Virus record (IMG/VR): IMGVR_UViG_3300048090_000069
Span: 25,652-89,651 of that record
Length of the DNA stretch: 64,000 nt
Reading direction: 5' to 3' (one strand)
Source of the DNA: a virus
Taxonomy: Duplodnaviria; Heunggongvirae; Uroviricota; Caudoviricetes
The position numbers were made by a program, and so were the translations under genes. The first letter of the stretch is position 1. Each line of letters starts with the position of its first letter. Of the stretch, positions 32,452 to 41,368 are shown piece after piece. The notes beneath the pieces were generated by a model, which worked only from the letters and a program-made list of their open reading frames with translations, had not been told where the DNA came from and searched no databases.

Positions 32452-33255
32452 TTATTTCGTGTTGACAATGCCCCGGAAGTCGGATGGAATCACAATCGTA
32501 TTCACCTTACCATTACGAACACCTTCAGCAATCATCAGTTGTGCCTGAGCCTGCATATACGAAATAGATTGACCTGCATTGTTTGCCAGAGAAGCCATAC
32601 GTTCAGACTCTTTCTTAGCAGTTTGCACTTCCACTTCCTTTGCTGCCAGTTCGCTCTTAGCCTTAATCAGATTGTTAGCTGCATCAATGATAGCAGGATT
32701 TGCCTTAATACTACGAGCTTGCACTTGAGTTACGAGAACAGCGTTATCCAACTTTTCCTCTGCCAGAGTTTGTTTCACTTGTGCAAGAATCTCATGTTCA
32801 ATGTCTGCACGATGGTCATTCATTGTCAGAGCGTCATACTGACGTGCCACTTTGTAAACAGCATTCTTAACAGTGTTTTGCAGGTAAGTGTGCATAAGAT
32901 GGATTTCACCTTGATCATCAAGAGCGTGGAAGCTGCGATTCTTGTTAATGTACAAATCACTTACAGAGCTTGGGTTAATGCTGTAGACAACAGATACATC
33001 GAAGTCGCCCATTGTAGAATTATCCTTTGCCAGAGGCGTAAGGTCAGACACATCTACAGAGATTTCCTTGATAGGAACTTCCAGCACAGAACCTACGAGA
33101 GTTTGATTGAACGAACCAGCCACCAATTCTGTACTGTCAATGGTGTTGTTAAAATTCTTACGCAGACCAACCTTACCTTGATCAACAACTTTGAAACAAC
33201 CCGACAGAGAGCTTGCCATAATAATAGCAGCTACAACAGACATAAACTTTTTCAT
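32452..33255 (-). CDS. SPFH/band-7 (prohibitin/HflC-like) domain lipoprotein
   Basis: Signal peptide with lipobox (SLSGC). The body is an SPFH-like domain followed by a long Ala/Gln-rich coiled-coil tail. Confidence 0.6.
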   Translation of the reverse strand: MKKFMSVVAAIIMASSLSGCFKVVDQGKVGLRKNFNNTIDSTELVAGSFNQTLVGSVLEVPIKEISVDVSDLTPLAKDNSTMGDFDVSVVYSINPSSVSDLYINKNRSFHALDDQGEIHLMHTYLQNTVKNAVYKVARQYDALTMNDHRADIEHEILAQVKQTLAEEKLDNAVLVTQVQARSIKANPAIIDAANNLIKAKSELAAKEVEVQTAKKESERMASLANNAGQSISYMQAQAQLMIAEGVRNGKVNTIVIPSDFRGIVNTK

Positions 33256-33627: not shown

Positions 33628-34281
33628 TTAGGACGTAACCTTAAACACACTGTTGATTTGTTCAGCAATCAGCGTAGCGAGGATAACGTGTTCCTTCTGA
33701 GTCACACCTTCTTCCATGCGTACTTCCAGATAATGAATCCAAGAGCGAATTGTACCATTCACGTATAGACGACTCATAGTAAGTCCTTCAGGAAGAATTA
33801 CACGAGCAACCTCTTTAGCAACACCTCGATTCAGAGCACGAGTGTACGTGTCTTTGACAATATGCAGAAGCATTGCTTGTTCACTCTTCCACCAATCAGC
33901 AAGCAATTCATCATCAGCTTCTAGGCTGTTCTGGCGGTTCTTGTTGTCCTGCATACGAAGCTCACGAAGACAGAAAGCTTGTTCAAGTTGTGTCACATCA
34001 GCATAACGCTGAGAGAACTCTTGGAATCTGAAGCTAGTGTGTCGCAGAAGTTGGCGAGCAATATCTCGTGGGGATTCCACTTCCACAACAACATTAGCCA
34101 TCTCAAACGGACTCCAATGTTTGTGCTTCATCAGATAGGCAGTAAGCTTTTCTGCTGTATCCATATTCATCTGATTAGAGGGATTACTCACACGCGCACA
34201 ATATGCAATCAGGTCGTGCATATCCTCTAGGCCCTCTACAACAGGCTTCGTCACAGCAATTAGTTTTGCACTAAACGTCAT
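33628..34281 (-). CDS. thyX: flavin-dependent thymidylate synthase
   Basis: The ThyX signature RHTSFRFQEFSQRY matches the RHR...SQRY motif. Confidence 0.75.
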   Translation of the reverse strand: MTFSAKLIAVTKPVVEGLEDMHDLIAYCARVSNPSNQMNMDTAEKLTAYLMKHKHWSPFEMANVVVEVESPRDIARQLLRHTSFRFQEFSQRYADVTQLEQAFCLRELRMQDNKNRQNSLEADDELLADWWKSEQAMLLHIVKDTYTRALNRGVAKEVARVILPEGLTMSRLYVNGTIRSWIHYLEVRMEEGVTQKEHVILATLIAEQINSVFKVTS

Positions 34282-35241: not shown

Positions 35242-35610
35242 TCACCAATCGTATTCAAAAGAATAAAGATTACGTTTTAGAATATCCTCTTTGAATGCTG
35301 TTACATCCACTGCGGAGAAATCAAAGTCGTAATCTTCTTGATTTTCCAGAACACATAAAATATCCCCAACATCCACTGTTTGATGACGTTCAGCCCACAC
35401 AGGCCCACCATATCCAATAAAGTCATCATCTGGAAGCCCTGCAAAACGTTCAATCCAACGAGAGTGATTGCGAAGGTCTTTAGGTGCCTTCATAAACACT
35501 TCCCAACGTTCATCCAAGCTGATAGTAGTGTCAGCAATGTATTGTTCAAATTCTTTCTTGATTTCTTCGATTTGAACACGAAGAGTGTCTACACGTTCTT
35601 TGAAATTCAT
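35242..35610 (-). CDS. hypothetical protein
   Basis: 122-aa ORF. Confidence 0.45.
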   Translation of the reverse strand: MNFKERVDTLRVQIEEIKKEFEQYIADTTISLDERWEVFMKAPKDLRNHSRWIERFAGLPDDDFIGYGGPVWAERHQTVDVGDILCVLENQEDYDFDFSAVDVTAFKEDILKRNLYSFEYDW

Positions 35611-35785: not shown

Positions 35786-36088
35786 TTAGTTCCTCACACT
35801 CTGAATAGCACTCTCGGAAGCATCTTCAACAATCTCATCTCGCCATTGTTTTAGCAGAGCCAGTAATTGACTCTCCAGAGTAGGTGTAGGATTATTCTCA
35901 GGCTCTTTAACTTTCACCAGATGAAGCTTCTCAGCAACGTCTTTGTGCAGAAGTTTGTTCAGAACATTTGTCTGATAGTAACTACCCTTGCCACTTGGGC
36001 GAGAAGTGATAGAGATTTCAAAGTAATCTTCTTCATTCGTGCCAGATTTACCGCTCACATCACATACGTAGGTTTTAATTAGTGCCAT
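35786..36088 (-). CDS. hypothetical protein
   Basis: 100-aa ORF with ATGA-type coupling to its neighbour. Confidence 0.45.
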   Translation of the reverse strand: MALIKTYVCDVSGKSGTNEEDYFEISITSRPSGKGSYYQTNVLNKLLHKDVAEKLHLVKVKEPENNPTPTLESQLLALLKQWRDEIVEDASESAIQSVRN

Positions 36089-37002
36089 TATGCTGCTTCC
36101 TTTTGTTTAGTTTGTTGAACAATACCATTTTTGATTGCTTCATCTACTTTGTCCATATAACCTTTACCTTCTTTCTCATACAGTTCCATCACAGCATAAG
36201 CGTTCTCCCATGCAAACTCCCGGAAATATCCACCGCAGATTGATGAACTCACTTTTCCCAGAGCAAACTTAAAGCTCCAATCAGGATCAGGACGAGGATT
36301 GAAACATAGCTGCGAGCGTTCAGCGGCCAAAGTTAGGCATTCTTCTAGCACACCATACAACTGAACCTCACGAGAACACTGTTTGAATTTGGACATGTCT
36401 GACCAAACTTCACCTCCAGCATAAGACAGATAAGCAGGTTGATCCATAAACTTCACTGCTTGGTGAATATCGTCATGTTCCCACTCGTAATTAATACCAT
36501 CACCAGCAAAGAATTCACCCTTCTTCACATTCAGTTTTGGCGTTTTATGTATGTAGGTATCTTTCTCACGATCAGCAAGAAACTCTTTGTGCTCCTCACG
36601 AATCTTTGCACCAGCTTTACGCAAAGCAAAGATATCATCCATTGTTTTAAAATGGTGTGGCGAATCTTTTAGATATCTATGAGACATCTTCAGCAGCAAC
36701 AGGACATCCAAAGAAGGAACAATCATCCCCTGTCCCACCCTGCCATTGTCAGATTGACCCTCAACAAACTTAATCAGCTTTTCTGCACGAGAGCCTTCCC
36801 ACGCTATTTCGGCTTCATGGATAACACCCTCACTGTCACGCATGAAGATTGTCTTACCTTCATTGATTGGATAGAACACTTTGATATTATTCCTCTTACG
36901 ATAGGCTTCAATTTCATCGTAAGTGCCTACAAGGTCTACATCAAGTGGCTCTCGCCAATCAGGGAGCCAATATTGAATAGCACGAGAGCCAATGAGTAGC
37001 AT
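36088..37002 (-). CDS. minimal Pol-beta-type nucleotidyltransferase (MNT-like) domain protein
   Basis: N-terminus MLLIGSRAIQYWLPDWREPLDVDLVG fits hG[GS]-x(9-14)-DhDh. A 300-aa C-terminal region is unassigned. Confidence 0.45.
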   Translation of the reverse strand: MLLIGSRAIQYWLPDWREPLDVDLVGTYDEIEAYRKRNNIKVFYPINEGKTIFMRDSEGVIHEAEIAWEGSRAEKLIKFVEGQSDNGRVGQGMIVPSLDVLLLLKMSHRYLKDSPHHFKTMDDIFALRKAGAKIREEHKEFLADREKDTYIHKTPKLNVKKGEFFAGDGINYEWEHDDIHQAVKFMDQPAYLSYAGGEVWSDMSKFKQCSREVQLYGVLEECLTLAAERSQLCFNPRPDPDWSFKFALGKVSSSICGGYFREFAWENAYAVMELYEKEGKGYMDKVDEAIKNGIVQQTKQKEAA

Positions 37003-37015
37003 TATTTTCCTTTAA

Positions 37016-37279
37016 TTAACAATCGTAAGAAGAACTGTTCCAATCGGGATGCATAGAGTCAATTGAAGCAATTTCACTCTCAAACACACCGTAAGAGCCA
37101 CCAATCTTAACTTCAGCACCAGACAGTTTAACAACCTCTTTAATCTCTTTCAGAATCATTTTGATTGCTGCCACCTTTTCAGCTACAAGTTTAGTGCCAA
37201 CTTGTTTCGTCATAGGCACTTGACCAGAAGCTTTCAGCAGTTCTTCGTATTTTTCACGAGAAATAGTTACAGTAGTCAT
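37016..37279 (-). CDS. hypothetical protein
   Basis: 87-aa ORF. Confidence 0.4.
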   Translation of the reverse strand: MTTVTISREKYEELLKASGQVPMTKQVGTKLVAEKVAAIKMILKEIKEVVKLSGAEVKIGGSYGVFESEIASIDSMHPDWNSSSYDC

Positions 37280-37296
37280 TTGTTTATTCCTTTATT

Positions 37297-37479
37297 TTAG
37301 CAAGAAGAATAGTTCCAGTCAATCCAGTCACCCGTCACATCTTCATACAGGTTCTGCATCGCACTGTCAAAATCAAAGTAGACGTTGTTACTATCTGCCA
37401 GTTCTTTAGCAGAATTCAGCAGGTTCTTTGCATCTTCAATTTGTTGTGCAATTAGAGCCAGAATTTCTTGTTGAGTCAT
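37297..37479 (-). CDS. hypothetical protein
   Basis: 60-aa ORF. Confidence 0.3.
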   Translation of the reverse strand: MTQQEILALIAQQIEDAKNLLNSAKELADSNNVYFDFDSAMQNLYEDVTGDWIDWNYSSC

Positions 37480-37506
37480 TTTAGTTTCCTTTAAAATAGT
37501 TTTATA

Positions 37507-37983
37507 TCAGCAACGGCTAGAGTGCCAGTTACGCGATTCAGATTCCATACTATCAATGATACTAAATAGTGCATCTACAGCTTTATTGTCAGGCAGACCT
37601 TCGTAACGCTGTTCCAGTTGGCAATAATAACCATCATTACTCCACTCTTCAGAGAATGGTAGATAATAAGAGACACCAGAAATATCACTAATCAGTTTTG
37701 CTTGTGCCAGATTCTTCTCTGCTACAGCAGCCAGTGCTGTAACTTTTTCAGAAACATCTTCTACACCCTCTGCCTCTTCATCACGTTCATCATCTACTTC
37801 AACCAATTCAAGAATTTCTTTAACAGCACTCTCACCAGCTTCAATAAATTGTGCAATGTATTTATTTGCATCTTTACGAACTTCTTTTTGAATCTGCTTC
37901 AGTTCTTCTAGGGTGCGACCCGCAATGATAATATTTTCCATGTTATCTCCTTTAATTAACAGCTTTGGCTCGACGCAAACCAT
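37507..37983 (-). CDS. hypothetical acidic protein
   Basis: 158-aa ORF. Confidence 0.45.
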   Translation of the reverse strand: MVCVEPKLLIKGDNMENIIIAGRTLEELKQIQKEVRKDANKYIAQFIEAGESAVKEILELVEVDDERDEEAEGVEDVSEKVTALAAVAEKNLAQAKLISDISGVSYYLPFSEEWSNDGYYCQLEQRYEGLPDNKAVDALFSIIDSMESESRNWHSSRC

Positions 37984-38141
37984 TCGCCCTCTGTACCATC
38001 ATAAGTTCCGCCCATACCATACGTAGGTGTAATGTGGAAACTCAGATTGTGTTCCATTGCAAAACATTCTGCTTTGCTCAGTGCTGCTTCAAATTCACTT
38101 ACCAATACTGCCAGTTGTGCGTTCAGTTCTTTCTTGCTCAT
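37956..38141 (-). CDS. hypothetical protein
   Basis: 61-aa ORF. Confidence 0.3.
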   Translation of the reverse strand: MSKKELNAQLAVLVSEFEAALSKAECFAMEHNLSFHITPTYGMGGTYDGTEGEWFASSQSC

Positions 38142-38142
38142 T

Positions 38143-38508
38143 TTACAGTTCCTTATAATGTTTACGAATCACTTTTGCAATTTGTTTGAAAGTCCATTCT
38201 GCATCATCGTTCAAATCAATCAGACTGTCGGCAGTAGGAACTTCTTTAATCAAACCACGAGGGAATTTACCTGAGACAGAATCCATACCTACCCAATCTC
38301 TCACTTCAAATGGAAGTTTAGTTTCTTCTCCCAGATATTCATACATACTCGTTTGTTCAGCAGCGATTTCAGGATGCTCTTGTGCATGAATGTTGCACAG
38401 GACACCAAGGCAGCAGAAGCCAACAGTATTACGAAGTTCACCCCTTGTTTGTTGATATTCACCACTCTCTAAAGCTTTTGCCCATTTACGAGCAATAGAA
38501 CGTTTCAT
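38143..38508 (-). CDS. hypothetical protein
   Basis: 121-aa ORF. Confidence 0.45.
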   Translation of the reverse strand: MKRSIARKWAKALESGEYQQTRGELRNTVGFCCLGVLCNIHAQEHPEIAAEQTSMYEYLGEETKLPFEVRDWVGMDSVSGKFPRGLIKEVPTADSLIDLNDDAEWTFKQIAKVIRKHYKEL

Positions 38509-38924
38509 GTTTCCTCCATGTAAAATTTATGTAAACCAATTGTGCGACGATGTTTAAACTTCTTATTCCACTCAGGATGTTTGTCCAACCTATGAAAATG
38601 AGAACATCCTCTACAGACAGGAGACATTCTAAACAACTCTTCCCATCCTGTCAAGCTCTTTGTTTCAATAATCTTCTGCCATGTGAAGCCAGAGAATTGC
38701 TTAGGCTGTAGAGCCACAACAGGGCAACTCTTGTTTGTACGTTTCATCCTCTCTAGAACTACGTCCATCACTGCACGCTTCCCTGCTAAGGACTCCCCTG
38801 AAGCCTCATGCTCTACGACAGCTTTCAAACAAACAGTGTCAGAGACAGCGAAGCTCCTAGAGGGATTGTCTACGTTGATACAAACAAAGAGTAGAAGAAG
38901 GCTCCAGAGCCATTTCAAGGCCAC
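38505..38924 (-). CDS. secreted SleB-like cell-wall hydrolase (Hydrolase_2 family)
   Basis: N-terminal signal peptide. The body carries EASGESLAGKRAVMDVVLERM...PKQFSGF, matching the SleB/CwlJ-type hydrolase motif. Confidence 0.5.
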   Translation of the reverse strand: MALKWLWSLLLLFVCINVDNPSRSFAVSDTVCLKAVVEHEASGESLAGKRAVMDVVLERMKRTNKSCPVVALQPKQFSGFTWQKIIETKSLTGWEELFRMSPVCRGCSHFHRLDKHPEWNKKFKHRRTIGLHKFYMEET

Positions 38925-40540
38925 AGGCGCTTACGAATCTTTTCTAGAGAGTCTTCTACAACCAGCTTACCATCTTCAAACACTGTTCGCAGTAATCCTT
39001 GTTTCTCTTCTTCAGGAGTTTGCTCATCGTACAGGACAAACCTCCCATCTTCATATTCTACACGGAGCAAACCTTTAGCAGATTTCTTCATGCCATCACC
39101 CGTTTTAGGGTCTTTGAAAATGTTACGTGGCTCTCCATTGACAATGCCGTAAGTGGCTTTCATAGCAAAGCCGTAGCTGTCACGAGTGACATGCTGATAG
39201 GTGTAGGAGCCAATGCCAAATACAATGTTAGAAGAGGCAAAGCCTTTAGCTTCCAGACGCTTCAGAATTTGCTGAGCACGTTCCAGAGTGATGCTGTCTC
39301 CGTAAATCAGACCAACACGAGGATTCAACATTTTGTGTCCTGTCTCGGACAGAGTACCACCAAAGATGTCCCAAAGGCATTCTACAGAGCCTTTTACTTC
39401 GTGCTCTGACACTTCCCGGCCTAGTTCAATGTCCATCAGACAATTACAAGAATCCCCACAGAAACTGTAATCAAATTCGTAATACTTGCCGTCTTTGACC
39501 GCTACATCAGTGGAATAGATATTGTCCTCGCAAACATCGTCAATATCTGTCACACGAAGTCCAGCAACAATTTTTACAGGATCACCACTATCAGGACGGA
39601 ACACCACCTTAGCATTACCCAGAGCATCAGGCTTACGTGCAAGGATGATGTCTTTCAGTTGTGCAGCAGTGTTTGTAATGACATTCCAGTAGTCCCAAGT
39701 GTCCGAAACAATACTAACAATACCGGACGGATATAGGTCAGTGATGAGACGCTTAATTGTAGCGTATTCACCTTCATCTGCCCCGCCCATGCACATTACA
39801 GAATGCTCCGTAGCTGGAACAGACCCACCAACAAACGTTTCACTGCCCTTGTAGTACTTTTCCAGATATTCAATGGCAGAAATAGTGTCAGTGCCAAGGA
39901 AAGACAGTAAGTGACCCGGAGCACTTTGAGCACCATCGAAGCTCCCAGACAAACCACGAAGCGAGAAATCATGACCTTGCCACAGAATAAACTCCTTAGG
40001 CGCACCTGTCTTTTCTGCATAATCCGTCAGCAGCTTACGATATTGGTAAGCAGTGGTTGCAGTGGTCGTAGGCTTCCACAGGTTGTTGCTGTACGCATCT
40101 TCCAGATAACCAACCAGCCAGCCAAAGCCGATCACCGTATTAGTGACAGTGAGTACAGGTACTTTAATATCTACCAAACTACCTTCAGGCAAAGCTTTGA
40201 TGCGCAGCGGCAGATAGCCCAAATCATGCAGGGCCGCAATGTGCGAGACATCAACAGCATCAGGGCCAAGGCACTTATCCATCATGGCTTTGTATTCACC
40301 TACAGCTTGTTCCTTTGGAACATTGAAGAATTGTTCATTGAACAAATCAATCAGGAAGTATTTGATAAAGCCTTGCAGGCCAAAGAATACAATCTTCTCG
40401 TCAAACGTATCTTTCAGCTTTGGTGCAAGCCGAGAGGAACGGGCAGTGAAATTAGAATAGACGTATTCCGTACCTTCTGGATACATCTTAACGTGTCCCG
40501 TCTTGTACATATCAGCAGCAAACAGCGGATTCAGTTTCAT
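38915..40540 (-). CDS. nadV: nicotinamide phosphoribosyltransferase family protein (Nampt/NadV homolog; could be the Namat-type nicotinamide ADP-ribose transferase)
   Basis: 541 aa with clear Nampt-family similarity along its length (MKLNPLFAADMYKTGH..., GTDT, C-terminal region). It is adjacent to a Prs-like gene. Confidence 0.85.
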   Translation of the reverse strand: MKLNPLFAADMYKTGHVKMYPEGTEYVYSNFTARSSRLAPKLKDTFDEKIVFFGLQGFIKYFLIDLFNEQFFNVPKEQAVGEYKAMMDKCLGPDAVDVSHIAALHDLGYLPLRIKALPEGSLVDIKVPVLTVTNTVIGFGWLVGYLEDAYSNNLWKPTTTATTAYQYRKLLTDYAEKTGAPKEFILWQGHDFSLRGLSGSFDGAQSAPGHLLSFLGTDTISAIEYLEKYYKGSETFVGGSVPATEHSVMCMGGADEGEYATIKRLITDLYPSGIVSIVSDTWDYWNVITNTAAQLKDIILARKPDALGNAKVVFRPDSGDPVKIVAGLRVTDIDDVCEDNIYSTDVAVKDGKYYEFDYSFCGDSCNCLMDIELGREVSEHEVKGSVECLWDIFGGTLSETGHKMLNPRVGLIYGDSITLERAQQILKRLEAKGFASSNIVFGIGSYTYQHVTRDSYGFAMKATYGIVNGEPRNIFKDPKTGDGMKKSAKGLLRVEYEDGRFVLYDEQTPEEEKQGLLRTVFEDGKLVVEDSLEKIRKRLWP

Positions 40541-40543
40541 TGT

Positions 40544-41368
40544 TTAAATTTCCTTAATTTTATTGTGAGAGCCAAACATATTGTTTACAACATAGATATT
40601 GTCATACACATCAGCAACAATGTCAACACCTTTAGTAAAAATACCATGTGTCACCATGATGTTGATAGTGCCGTGATAGTGCATCTGAAGCTCGTCAGCC
40701 AGCGGAATGAACGTGCCGCCACCATCTAGAATATCATCTACGACAAGAACATTTTTGTCTTCAAATTGCCCAATATCATTGTACACAACAGTGCCAGTGA
40801 TTTTCCCCGTCTTGACATCTCGTGTCTTGTCAGCCCTCATCACTTCCACTTCGGGAATATACGTAGAGACAAACTGAGCATACTTCTGAATCTTCTTCAA
40901 TGCCCCAGCATCAGGACTTACAATCACAGTGGCCTTGCAATCTTGCATAGCTTTCAACACTTTTTGTTCCACAGAGCAAATATGAATGTTGTACAACAGA
41001 GCACCTAAAACATCACTGTGAGGGTCTGTGACAAACACCCTATCAAAATTCATGCTGTTAATGAAATTACAAATAACTTTCAAACTATGACTCTCTCCAG
41101 CATTACAAACCCTATCTTGGCGAGCATATGGGAAATAATCAATCGTCAGATTTACAGGAATCTTCGGATAGTTTCTCCGCACAGCATCATTCAGCAGAGC
41201 AAGTTCAATCAAATCCTCATTACCTTGCCACTTCAATGTAATATGTGCTTGAGGGTGTTGTGAATTATATCCCAAAGCCATATCAGTTAGCTTAATACCG
41301 GTTTCTCCTGCTGGAAAATTCCATCTATTAATTGTTACAGGATGGCGGTCTACATATAAACTAAGCAT
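40544..41368 (-). CDS. prs: ribose-phosphate pyrophosphokinase family protein (Prs homolog; could be Adps-type ADPR pyrophosphokinase)
   Basis: YARQDR motif and PRPP-binding loop VVDDILDGGGT are present. At 274 aa it is shorter than canonical Prs. Confidence 0.85.
   Translation of the reverse strand: MLSLYVDRHPVTINRWNFPAGETGIKLTDMALGYNSQHPQAHITLKWQGNEDLIELALLNDAVRRNYPKIPVNLTIDYFPYARQDRVCNAGESHSLKVICNFINSMNFDRVFVTDPHSDVLGALLYNIHICSVEQKVLKAMQDCKATVIVSPDAGALKKIQKYAQFVSTYIPEVEVMRADKTRDVKTGKITGTVVYNDIGQFEDKNVLVVDDILDGGGTFIPLADELQMHYHGTINIMVTHGIFTKGVDIVADVYDNIYVVNNMFGSHNKIKEI

Follow-up and report, generated by a model that had tools for sequence, protein, structure and literature searches.

A virus-restricted gene for a predicted Pol-beta-superfamily nucleotidyltransferase is linked to genes for small acidic proteins with a common C-terminal tail

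The window, i.e., the whole stretch of 64,000 nucleotides of viral DNA analyzed here, carries a gene for a putative nucleotidyltransferase (NTase) of 304 aa, directly preceded by four small genes for acidic proteins (37016-38141, minus strand) that share the C-terminal ending W-x(1-2)-S-S-x(0-2)-C and are called tail proteins hereafter. The NTase ORF lies on the minus strand of the interval given in an earlier note on this DNA (36088-37002). It runs from an ATG at 37002, with the Shine-Dalgarno sequence AAAGGAAA 8 nt upstream, to a TAA stop at 36088-36090, which overlaps the ATG of the next ORF (TAATG). The genes are tightly packed and the same RBS stands before each. The features are as follows:

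36088..37002, minus strand: NTase gene, 304 aa, Pfam DUF7277 and DUF7275, PHROG 2141
36718..37002, minus strand: N-lobe of the NTase (aa 1-95), predicted alpha/beta catalytic core with G5-S6, D21-x-D23 and E63-x-E65, assigned from conserved columns, secondary structure and DUF7277
36598..36717, minus strand: basic connector of the NTase (aa 96-135), with K105, S107, H108, R109, K119, T120 and D123 as invariant columns
36091..36597, minus strand: C-terminal helical domain of the NTase (aa 136-304), the bulk of DUF7275
37016..37279, minus strand: tail protein 1, 87 aa, ending in ...DWNSSSYDC, its stop 13 nt upstream of the NTase ATG
37297..37479, minus strand: tail protein 2, 60 aa, ending in ...DWNYSSC, with a weak PHROG 899 match
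37507..37941, minus strand: tail protein 3, 144 aa, ending in ...RNWHSSRC, with its ATG at 37941 and an AAAGGAG RBS
37956..38141, minus strand: tail protein 4, 61 aa, of the canonical helix and YGMGGTY type, ending in ...EWFASSQSC, PHROG 899 at E 1e-11

Tail protein 3 is counted from the ATG at 37941, the mechanical ORF beginning at 37983. As stated earlier, the NTase gene lies a few genes downstream of an NAD-salvage pair, made up of a Prs-like gene (40544-41368) and a NAMPT-like gene (38915-40540), both on the minus strand. The translationally coupled ORF downstream of the NTase (35786-36088) was considered as a partner and set aside, the ORFs at the same position in other phages being non-homologous.

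The NTase matches two Pfam families, DUF7277 (PF23942) at aa 1-77 (E 8e-18, 65.4 bits, cut-off 27) and DUF7275 (PF23940) at aa 101-278 (E 4e-51, 173.9 bits, cut-off 27), and is a full-length member of PHROG 2141 (E 1.4e-81 over aa 1-299). The entries for DUF7277, DUF7275, PHROG 2141 and PHROG 899 carry no function. The literature searched for these DUF and PHROG identifiers, for the tail motif strings and for a phage NTase with a C-terminal cysteine held nothing relevant, and megablast of the NTase region against GenBank phages gave zero matches.

The N-terminus, MLLIGSRAIQYW...PLDVDLVG, had been read as an NTase catalytic signature, and this reading is borne out: the quoted residues are exact, and the motif columns are conserved rather than a chance resemblance. 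Across 67 homologues (43-69% identity), G5, A8, D21 and D23 are invariant, S6, E63 and E65 are conserved to 90% or more, and the same pattern is repeated in about 78 further IMG/VR homologues; no homologue, not even among the shortened actinophage forms, has lost both E63 and E65. In the structure model (secondary structure E2-4, H5-12, E21-26, E61-66), the hG[GS] turn typical of Pol-beta enzymes is present as strand 2-4 followed by helix 5-12, with the invariant G5; D21 and D23 of the D-x-[DE] element lie on strand 21-26, and a third carboxylate is supplied by E63/E65 on strand 61-66. The overall alpha/beta fold of the model, the check proposed for the Pol-beta assignment, resembles solved members of the superfamily. 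The best structural matches are the toxins MenT1 (8an4), MenT3/TglT (6j7n) and MenT4 (6y56), with viral poly(A) polymerases and CCA enzymes next. Judged by the modelled fold and the conserved catalytic residues, the ORF encodes a Pol-beta-superfamily enzyme with predicted NTase activity, and the model places it in the two-lobed structural group of MenT/AbiEii, ANT(2'') and LnuA.

The predicted NTase core, with K105 and D123 included, runs to about residue 130. K105 and D123 are the proposed equivalents of K137 and D152 (motifs III/IV), catalytic residues of MenT1 (PMC10435456), a correspondence drawn from spacing and secondary structure rather than residue-level superposition; the K105-D123 spacing is 18 residues, as against 15-22 in MenT1, MenT3 and MenT4. 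The connector has a pI of 10 and a net charge of +4, while both its flanks are acidic and the family as a whole is acidic on average (mean pI 6.2). What had been described as a C-terminal extension of about 250 aa with no recognizable domain is covered by DUF7275 at aa 101-278, and the extension proper is a conserved helical domain of about 170 aa whose invariant residues are R145, F164-F165, H176-D177-x-x-H180, P189, E220-E221, E228-R229, K250, S254, G258 and R261. The R109-x6-H116 segment, read as a HEPN Rx4-6H motif, was discarded, as the pattern is lost in distant homologues.

The NTase family is confined to viruses, with 686 GenBank phage records, giant-virus members and 1,636 representative clusters from metagenomes; among 185,579 genomes, only 7 MAG contigs carry it. 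In T4, NrdC.11 is annotated as 'nucleotidyltransferase', yet tblastn and the family HMM found no relative in the 44-72 kb region. The virus-only distribution contrasts with that of the MenT/AbiEii toxins, which belong to cellular toxin-antitoxin loci. Beyond the structural likeness, sequence membership in MenT/AbiEii (DUF1814) was not found in Pfam (E<=10), PDB, PADLOC or NCBIfam, and the C-terminal domain of the viral enzyme is different and family-specific. The Ser/Thr auto-phosphorylation site that MenT/AbiEii proteins have at -2 from the first Asp corresponds to position 19, which is Pro in most viral members, and the place of AbiEi/MenA3-type partners is taken by arrays of acidic tail proteins.

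These arrays hold one to five small, very acidic proteins whose bodies vary, while the tail, G-W-x(1-2)-S-S-x(0-2)-C, is shared and sits at or beside the C-terminus after an acidic linker that is probably flexible; a second, internal copy of the motif was found in 8 of 180 proteins. In PHROG 899, it is the C-terminal part that the tail proteins match. Among proteins of the tail protein 4 type (alignment A2), F35, G42, G44, G45, W54, S57, S58 and C61 are invariant, and tail protein 3 is homologous to proteins directly upstream of the NTase in other loci (L004, L006 and L013). All six Ser codons occur at both Ser positions of the tail, which shows that selection acts on the protein sequence and excludes a DNA-level explanation of the motif.

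Genomic linkage between the NTase and the tail proteins holds in both directions. In 64 of 77 IMG/VR NTase loci, the 3 kb upstream contain at least one tail ORF on the same strand, and motif ORFs are found in 169/9,334 same-strand as opposed to 5/12,037 opposite-strand ORFs (Fisher p 5e-54). No neighbor other than the tail family is widely shared: the tail family is present in 78 of 95 loci, the next family in 18. In the reverse direction, the NTase lies downstream of every genuine tail gene checked, 7/7 and 4/4 in two sets (11/11 in all). A DNA-pattern scan of IMG/VR returned mostly chance ORFs, together with 7 genuine matches and 4 of unsettled status. The pairing is kept in T4-like phages, Phapecoctavirus, Otagovirus, a Ralstonia jumbo phage, Myxococcus Mx1 and a giant contig of 2.2 Mb. 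A nearby tail gene is absent in about 10-15% of loci, and tail genes are wholly absent alongside the actinophage NTase homologues. An apparent natural fusion of the two proteins (P0126) proved to be a gene-caller read-through of a TAG stop. Together, the enzyme and the tail proteins form a conserved two-part module that is apparently undescribed.

An enzyme gene adjoining the gene of its small protein substrate (acidic in CitD and MdcC) is also the arrangement of MntA-HepT, CitX-CitD and MdcG-MdcC. In CitX-CitD and MdcG-MdcC, a Pol-beta-type enzyme modifies a hydroxyl on a dedicated small partner protein, and so does MntA on its partner HepT (PMC7641770). In these systems a nucleotide-derived group is placed on a Tyr or Ser hydroxyl, while the modification considered here is hypothetical; the likeness serves as a working analogy, and Pfam detected no homology of the NTase to these families. 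A difference from MntA-HepT and CitX-CitD is that a short terminal tag, common to several paralogues, would act as the acceptor.

The reading we prefer, with somewhat less than even confidence, is that the enzyme nucleotidylylates a serine of the tails, as the enzyme half of the two-part module. The N-lobe (G5-S6, D21, D23, E63/E65) would bind Mg2+ and NTP in a site completed by K105 and D123, in the manner of K137 and D152 in MenT1, while the tail would be held by the virus-specific C-terminal domain and the basic connector. An NMP, a short nucleotide chain or a nucleotide-derived group would then pass to the hydroxyl of a tail serine, and the modification may serve to mark early phage proteins, or to arm them, as a set. 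We infer the tail as covalent acceptor, the residue modified, the nucleotide used and the biological purpose alike.

The main competing reading, which we find doubtful, makes the tail proteins non-covalent partners whose tail docks or plugs the enzyme, their bodies serving as adaptors to targets or as antitoxin-like regulators of a potentially toxic MenT-like enzyme. The linkage data are identical under both readings, a constant tail on varied bodies suits an adaptor, and a small gene directly upstream of a MenT-like NTase resembles menA1-menT1, in which a short antitoxin blocks the MenT1 active site (PMC10435456). However, one to five diverged paralogues per genome would be unusual for an antitoxin, and tail chemistry rather than docking alone is suggested because the invariant tail residues (Ser, Ser, Cys) are nucleophiles. 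A test by AF2, in which a tail protein and the enzyme were joined artificially by read-through, left the tail disordered, with pLDDT <50, and gave no sign of docking; the short linker and the thin tail alignment made this test weak. Counting against modification of the tails are the MenT toxins, which come closest among solved structures and whose substrates are tRNA 3' ends rather than proteins, as well as the loci, including those of actinophages, that lack a tail gene. The same three tRNA-modifying top matches, and the viral polymerases and CCA enzymes behind them, would instead support an RNA 3'-end NTase akin to MenT or to CCA/poly(A) enzymes, a reading we judge unlikely. Such an enzyme would add nucleotides to the ends of tRNA or other RNA, for repair or maturation or to disable host RNAs, and the tail proteins would be only loosely related to this function. 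A universal substrate of this kind would suit a family common to phages and giant viruses, and some neighborhoods fit: tRNA clusters lie within 2-3 kb at 3 of 16 loci (weak support), an RNA ligase gene adjoins the NTase in Ralstonia RSP15 and lies nearby in Streptomyces Limpid, and the neighbors in the giant contig are PTH2 and an aminoacyl-tRNA synthetase. The tRNA gene and RNA ligase associations are, however, sporadic and near the chance level for large phages, T4 has eight tRNAs yet lacks a homologue in the 28 kb examined, the acidic mean pI of the family speaks against an RNA substrate, and the near-obligate tail-protein neighbors would be left unexplained.

Those neighbors would also be without a role if the enzyme were a small-molecule O-nucleotidylyltransferase of the ANT(2'')/LnuA type, inactivating a metabolite with antiphage action or a nucleotide signal of immunity, or acting as a non-orthologous NMN adenylyltransferase for the NAD genes; such a function appears improbable. 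ANT(2'')-Ia (4xje) and LnuA (4wh5), though of the same structural group, are bacterial resistance proteins of about 160-180 aa with small-molecule substrates and without the DUF7275 helical domain. A role as NMNAT for the adjacent NAD genes was rejected, since a NAMPT gene is seldom adjacent (the neighbor families common to at least 6 of 95 loci do not include it), the Prs and Nampt pair has the architecture of NARP1, which needs no NMNAT (10.1101/2024.02.11.579819), and NARP3 is unrelated. The interpretation of the earlier note, a minimal MNT-type NTase whose extension is unstructured or unknown and which works alone as a Gad2-like anti-defense factor, holds as to NTase identity and fails as to an enzyme that is minimal, MNT-like and acting alone, and is very improbable as a whole. 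The NTase signature is real and the gene stands in an early, anti-defense-like neighborhood; on the other hand, the protein has 304 aa in two conserved lobes and matches no Pfam NTase model (including NTP_transf) even at E<=10, no MNT structure is among its top structural matches, its neighbors have no HEPN domain that could act as a partner, and a conserved partner family means that the enzyme is not alone. Gad2 is reportedly a phage-encoded anti-Gabija protein with a predicted NTase domain; its likeness to the present enzyme, taken from its description alone, is at the level of the superfamily, of being phage-encoded and of an anti-defense setting.

Returning to modification of the tails, an anti-defense purpose is plausible, as suggested solely by the early-gene position beside the NARP1-like pair. 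More broadly, and with still greater reserve, phages and some giant viruses may encode a hitherto unrecognized form of post-translational tagging, in which a MenT-like NTase recognizes and chemically modifies a portable W-x-x-S-S-x-x-C tail on diversifying small acidic early proteins. In its simplest version this would be Ser-O-nucleotidylylation or protein-primed oligonucleotide synthesis; in the most exotic, elimination after nucleotidylylation and then an attack by the Cys would give a lanthionine-like ring, with the invariant H176/D177/H180/E220/E221 cluster of the C-terminal domain as a second, metal-dependent site. The modified tail proteins would then be the real effectors, for instance nucleic-acid mimics or traps directed against host defenses.

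Modification of the tails, if it occurs, would add a new kind of protein modification encoded by viruses, one guided by a short and portable recognition tag; it would be of interest for the biology of phage-host conflict and might serve as a tagging tool. Should tRNA instead prove to be the substrate, the MenT toxins would have their first viral counterpart. The MenT-like fold, the restriction to viruses and the near-obligate link with the tail proteins together gather several early genes of each phage genome, so far 'hypothetical', into one testable system around an NTase family still annotated as just two DUFs. Carriers of the NTase include T4-like, phAPEC8-like and Acinetobacter phages used in therapy research, and the gene is common in large virulent phages.

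The predicted nucleotidyltransferase gene is a genuine open reading frame of 304 codons on the minus strand (36088-37002), and its N-terminus reads exactly as quoted in the earlier note. The ATG at 37002 is preceded by the ribosome-binding site AAAGGAAA, and the TAA stop shares the overlap TAATG with the ATG of the next gene. Across 67 aligned homologues (43-69% identity) G5, A8, D21 and D23 never vary and S6, E63 and E65 are kept in at least 90%, and the same signature residues are retained in about 78 more IMG/VR homologues; the G-S...D-x-D pattern is therefore no chance match. The fold prediction was right, as the conserved motifs sit where a nucleotidyltransferase fold requires them—strand 2-4, G-S starting helix 5-12, D-x-D on strand 21-26, E-x-E on strand 61-66—and the protein is evidently a conserved Pol-beta enzyme, predicted from its residues to be active.

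Pfam places DUF7277 at residues 1-77 (E 8e-18) and DUF7275 at residues 101-278 (E 4e-51), PHROGs assigns the protein to family 2141 (function unknown), and sequence or profile searches of NCBIfam, PADLOC and the PDB gave no match. K105 and D123, 18 residues apart, are also invariant and, judging from this spacing, probably occupy the part of the second lobe corresponding to K137 and D152 of MenT1, whose catalytic residues are D41, D43, K137 and D152 (PMC10435456). In contrast, the position two before the first Asp is a Pro here and an auto-phosphorylated Ser/Thr in the MenT toxins. The C-terminal extension, previously described as lacking any recognisable domain, has indeed no convincing PDB match but is not featureless: DUF7275 covers 101-278, and residues 136-304 make up a helical domain in which R145, H176-D177-x-x-H180, E220-E221, E228-R229, K250, S254 and R261 are invariant. 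The label 'minimal' or 'MNT-like' has to be abandoned, given two lobes, a second domain peculiar to this family and the lack of a HEPN partner, and membership tests did not place the enzyme in the MNT family. It belongs to the two-lobed MenT/AbiEii, ANT(2'') and LnuA group and, by fold, forms a new branch, confined to viruses, of a known superfamily, with the MenT/AbiEii toxins closest; it falls outside the MenT/AbiEii family itself, having no profile match, cellular toxin-antitoxin context or phospho-site. In some phages, DUF7275-only and DUF7277-only proteins are annotated separately (BFVD J7I4W1, Stenotrophomonas phage IME13, 168 aa; A0A142IE91, Pseudomonas phage KIL2, 117 aa), which may be split genes or frameshifts.

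One to five small acidic proteins are encoded next to the enzyme, on the same strand and tightly packed, in an association that is near-obligate and holds in both directions. These proteins were first noticed by comparing small ORFs beside homologues of the enzyme in unrelated viruses: the ORFs immediately upstream have an unusual C-terminus in common, W-x(1-2)-S-S-x(0-2)-C, hence 'tail' proteins. The four tail genes of the window are consecutive, with identical ribosome-binding sites and spacers of 1-27 nt:

37956-38141, minus strand, tail protein of 61 aa, C-terminus ...EWFASSQSC
37507-37941, minus strand, tail protein of 144 aa, C-terminus ...RNWHSSRC
37297-37479, minus strand, tail protein of 60 aa, C-terminus ...DWNYSSC
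37016-37279, minus strand, tail protein of 87 aa, C-terminus ...DWNSSSYDC

A simple regular expression for the motif, run over all stop-to-stop ORFs of at least 30 aa, gave one spurious match among 1,109 ORFs in the remainder of the 64-kb window and none among 415 ORFs in 28 kb of T4, a region without the enzyme. Among 80 IMG/VR loci centred on homologues, 77 had sufficient upstream DNA, and 64 of these have one or more same-strand tail ORFs in the 3 kb upstream. The motif occurs in 169 of 9,334 same-strand and 5 of 12,037 opposite-strand ORFs (odds ratio 44, Fisher p 5e-54), and several 'negative' loci hold variants with one to four residues past the Cys. All-against-all neighbour clustering of 95 loci joined the tail ORFs by BLAST into a single family of 200 ORFs from 78 loci (185 upstream), the sole widely shared neighbour, the next family occurring in 18 loci. 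In the reverse direction, the enzyme lies downstream of all seven genuine tail genes that a DNA-pattern scan found with enough downstream sequence. A tail protein used as tblastn query matches 158 GenBank phages, in the same genera as the enzyme, which was located at most 800 bp downstream (HMM E 1e-91 to 1e-124) in 4/4 phages inspected (Myxococcus Mx1, Ralstonia RSP15, Acinetobacter Acj9 and AB1I1T).

For the 180 distinct tail proteins the medians are 87 aa (length) and 4.4 (pI), and right-aligned the proteins end in G-W-x-x-S-S-x-x-C (126) or W-x-S-S-x-C (48), preceded by an acidic Gly/Ser/Tyr-rich stretch. Their bodies are varied (a helix followed by YGMGGxY, a type of about 140 aa, one with a WYL_2 Sm-like domain); Pfam has no model for them, and PHROG 899 (function unknown) matches their C-terminal part. 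Both Ser positions employ all six serine codons, so it is the peptide that is under selection rather than a DNA element, and eight proteins bear a second, internal motif copy, so that a free C-terminal carboxylate cannot be essential. One 377-aa database protein (P0126; locus L224, 107-1240) appears to fuse a tail protein to the enzyme but is no natural fusion: the gene caller read through the TAG that comes after ...WNSSGGPACW, the end of the tail gene. The contig may belong to a TAG-recoding phage, or the wrong genetic code may just have been applied to it.

By tblastn, homologues of the enzyme are present in 686 of 50,697 GenBank phage records, every one below 60% identity, including Straboviridae (Mosigvirus, Aeromonas phage 31, Acinetobacter T4-likes), Phapecoctavirus, Otagovirus, the Ralstonia jumbo phage RsoM2USA, and Gordonia and Streptomyces phages. 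Among 1.84 billion representatives, a profile search recognised 1,636 clusters; nearly all are about 300 aa long, and none of the best 150 is a fusion. The 2.23-Mb JGI contig Ga0495683_0000001 (loci L004/L005, 7578-16043), which looks like a giant virus, encodes the enzyme together with a tail protein of 135 aa ending ...RDWHASTC; their neighbours are PTH2, a NUMOD3 endonuclease, a class II aminoacyl-tRNA synthetase and an ankyrin-repeat protein. BFVD lists proteins with DUF7275 from Sylvanvirus and Satyrvirus, 508 and 571 aa long. As 185,579 bacterial and archaeal species genomes yielded only seven loci, all on phage-like MAG contigs, the family is essentially viral, which separates it from the cellular MenT/AbiEii toxin-antitoxin systems.

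Two actinophage homologues (Gordonia phage Smoothie, L014 3492-5500; Streptomyces phage Limpid, L015 3495-5000) are shortened, the N-lobe missing residues ~28-58. W-S-S-C tail genes are absent at both loci, and downstream of the enzyme come two or three small proteins, paralogues of one another, that end in ...[YW]DG...EEVxPxxKTIT[VD][FYW], which may be a parallel partner family. These two enzymes differ from all others at R109, K112, H116, T120, R145, R261 and W265, candidate tail-binding residues on the basis of two actinophage sequences only.

The surroundings encode ThyX, ribonucleotide reductase, family-A DNA polymerase, primase-helicase and tape-measure protein, and the window therefore derives from a large virulent phage; no close GenBank relative of the region was found, and a 98% identical enzyme occurs on metagenomic contigs of 88-90 kb. 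As the earlier note had it, the gene lies downstream of an NAD pair, 1.9 kb away:

40544-41368, minus strand, first gene, Prs-family protein of 274 aa (Pribosyltran, Pribosyltran_N, weak Pribosyl_synth)
38915-40540, minus strand, second gene, Nampt-family protein of 541 aa (NAMPT_N and NAPRTase)

This two-gene Pfam architecture is identical to that of the anti-defence operon NARP1 (Adps and Namat) of phage Bas63, which produces NAD+ without NMNAT (10.1101/2024.02.11.579819), and by this analogy the pair more likely rebuilds NAD+ from ADP-ribose and nicotinamide than serves classical salvage. In the Acinetobacter T4-like phages Acj9 (L227 3677-8159) and AB1I1T (L228 3683-8177), tail genes and enzyme are followed, two genes on, by Prs and NAMPT, so that pair and module adjoin in two unrelated phage lineages with differing gene order.

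Pol-beta enzymes move an NMP onto a hydroxyl group, and since the invariant tail residues are nucleophilic (Ser-Ser, Cys), the enzyme would bind the tail and most probably use it as acceptor, the neighbouring Trp possibly serving as anchor. Binding would be favoured because the tail ends a flexible acidic linker and the connector around K105-K119 is the enzyme's one basic patch (pI 10); several diverged bodies carrying one constant tag are, moreover, as expected of one modifying enzyme with multiple substrates. Modification of protein partners has Pol-beta-type precedent in CitX and MdcG, which load small acidic acyl-carrier proteins, at a serine, with a nucleotide-derived prosthetic group, and in MntA, described in one account as poly-AMPylating its partner HepT (PMC7641770). 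When AF2 was run on the P0126 read-through product, the tail stayed disordered, a result that speaks neither for nor against the model. We hold this covalent-substrate model tentatively, as a substantial possibility. That the tails are non-covalent docking or plugging peptides, acting as adaptors or antitoxin-like regulators, is more doubtful: the small gene ahead of the gene for a MenT-like enzyme is reminiscent of menA1-menT1, but neither the multiple paralogues nor the nucleophilic invariant residues fit.

A MenT-like RNA or tRNA 3'-end transferase would agree with the structural ranking, with a host range that demands a universal substrate, and with sporadic neighbours such as tRNA clusters in 3 of 16 loci, RNA ligases in RSP15 and Limpid, and PTH2 and an aminoacyl-tRNA synthetase in the giant contig; it leaves the tail proteins unaccounted for, and we consider it unlikely. 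It is improbable that the enzyme transfers to small molecules, either ANT/Lnu-like or standing in for an NMNAT that would serve the NAD pair nearby, for although that pair recurs beside the module in Acinetobacter phages, it is rare there across the 95 loci and has the architecture of NARP1, which needs no NMNAT. Least supported is the earlier proposal of a stand-alone MNT-like anti-defence factor. An anti-defence purpose as such is plausible from the early-gene position beside a NARP1-like operon. The literature searched yielded no description of the module and no paper mentioning the enzyme family, the tail family or the motif; in kind it is a nucleotidyltransferase with dedicated protein partners, a class it could exceed if the tail chemistry proves unusual, and this conserved partnership gives the finding more interest than first assigned to it.

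Other genes of the region are as follows:

within 38143-38924, minus strand, adjoining the tail genes upstream, Cys-containing protein of 121 aa, PHROG 18067 (unknown function)
within 38143-38924, minus strand, upstream of the tail genes, SleB-type cell-wall hydrolase (Hydrolase_2) of 139 aa
35786-36088, minus strand, ORF of 100 aa translationally coupled to the enzyme gene (TAATG overlap)
35242-35610, downstream of the enzyme gene in the same direction, DUF7020 protein
33628-34281, downstream in the same direction, ThyX thymidylate synthase
32452-33255, downstream in the same direction, SPFH/Band-7 protein
21620-21696, minus strand, tRNA-Met(CAT), the single tRNA gene

Eight loci have the PHROG 18067 protein near the module and 18/95 have relatives of the hydrolase there, and a strong sigma-70-like promoter match (TTGACA-17-TAGAAT, 38654-38626) lies within the hydrolase gene. 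The 100-aa ORF, without Pfam or PHROG match, is conserved in the closest relatives only, ORFs at this position in other phages being unrelated. Elsewhere, an RnlB RNA ligase 2 directly follows the enzyme in Ralstonia RSP15 (L226 5803-6825), and an 'RNA ligase' lies two genes ahead of it in Limpid (L015 1681-2340). Clusters of tRNA genes lie at most 2-3 kb from the enzyme in Smoothie (L014 5533-7705), RsoM2USA (L016 350-1682) and one MAG phage contig (L020 8820-12484), which also carries a tmRNA-like gene.
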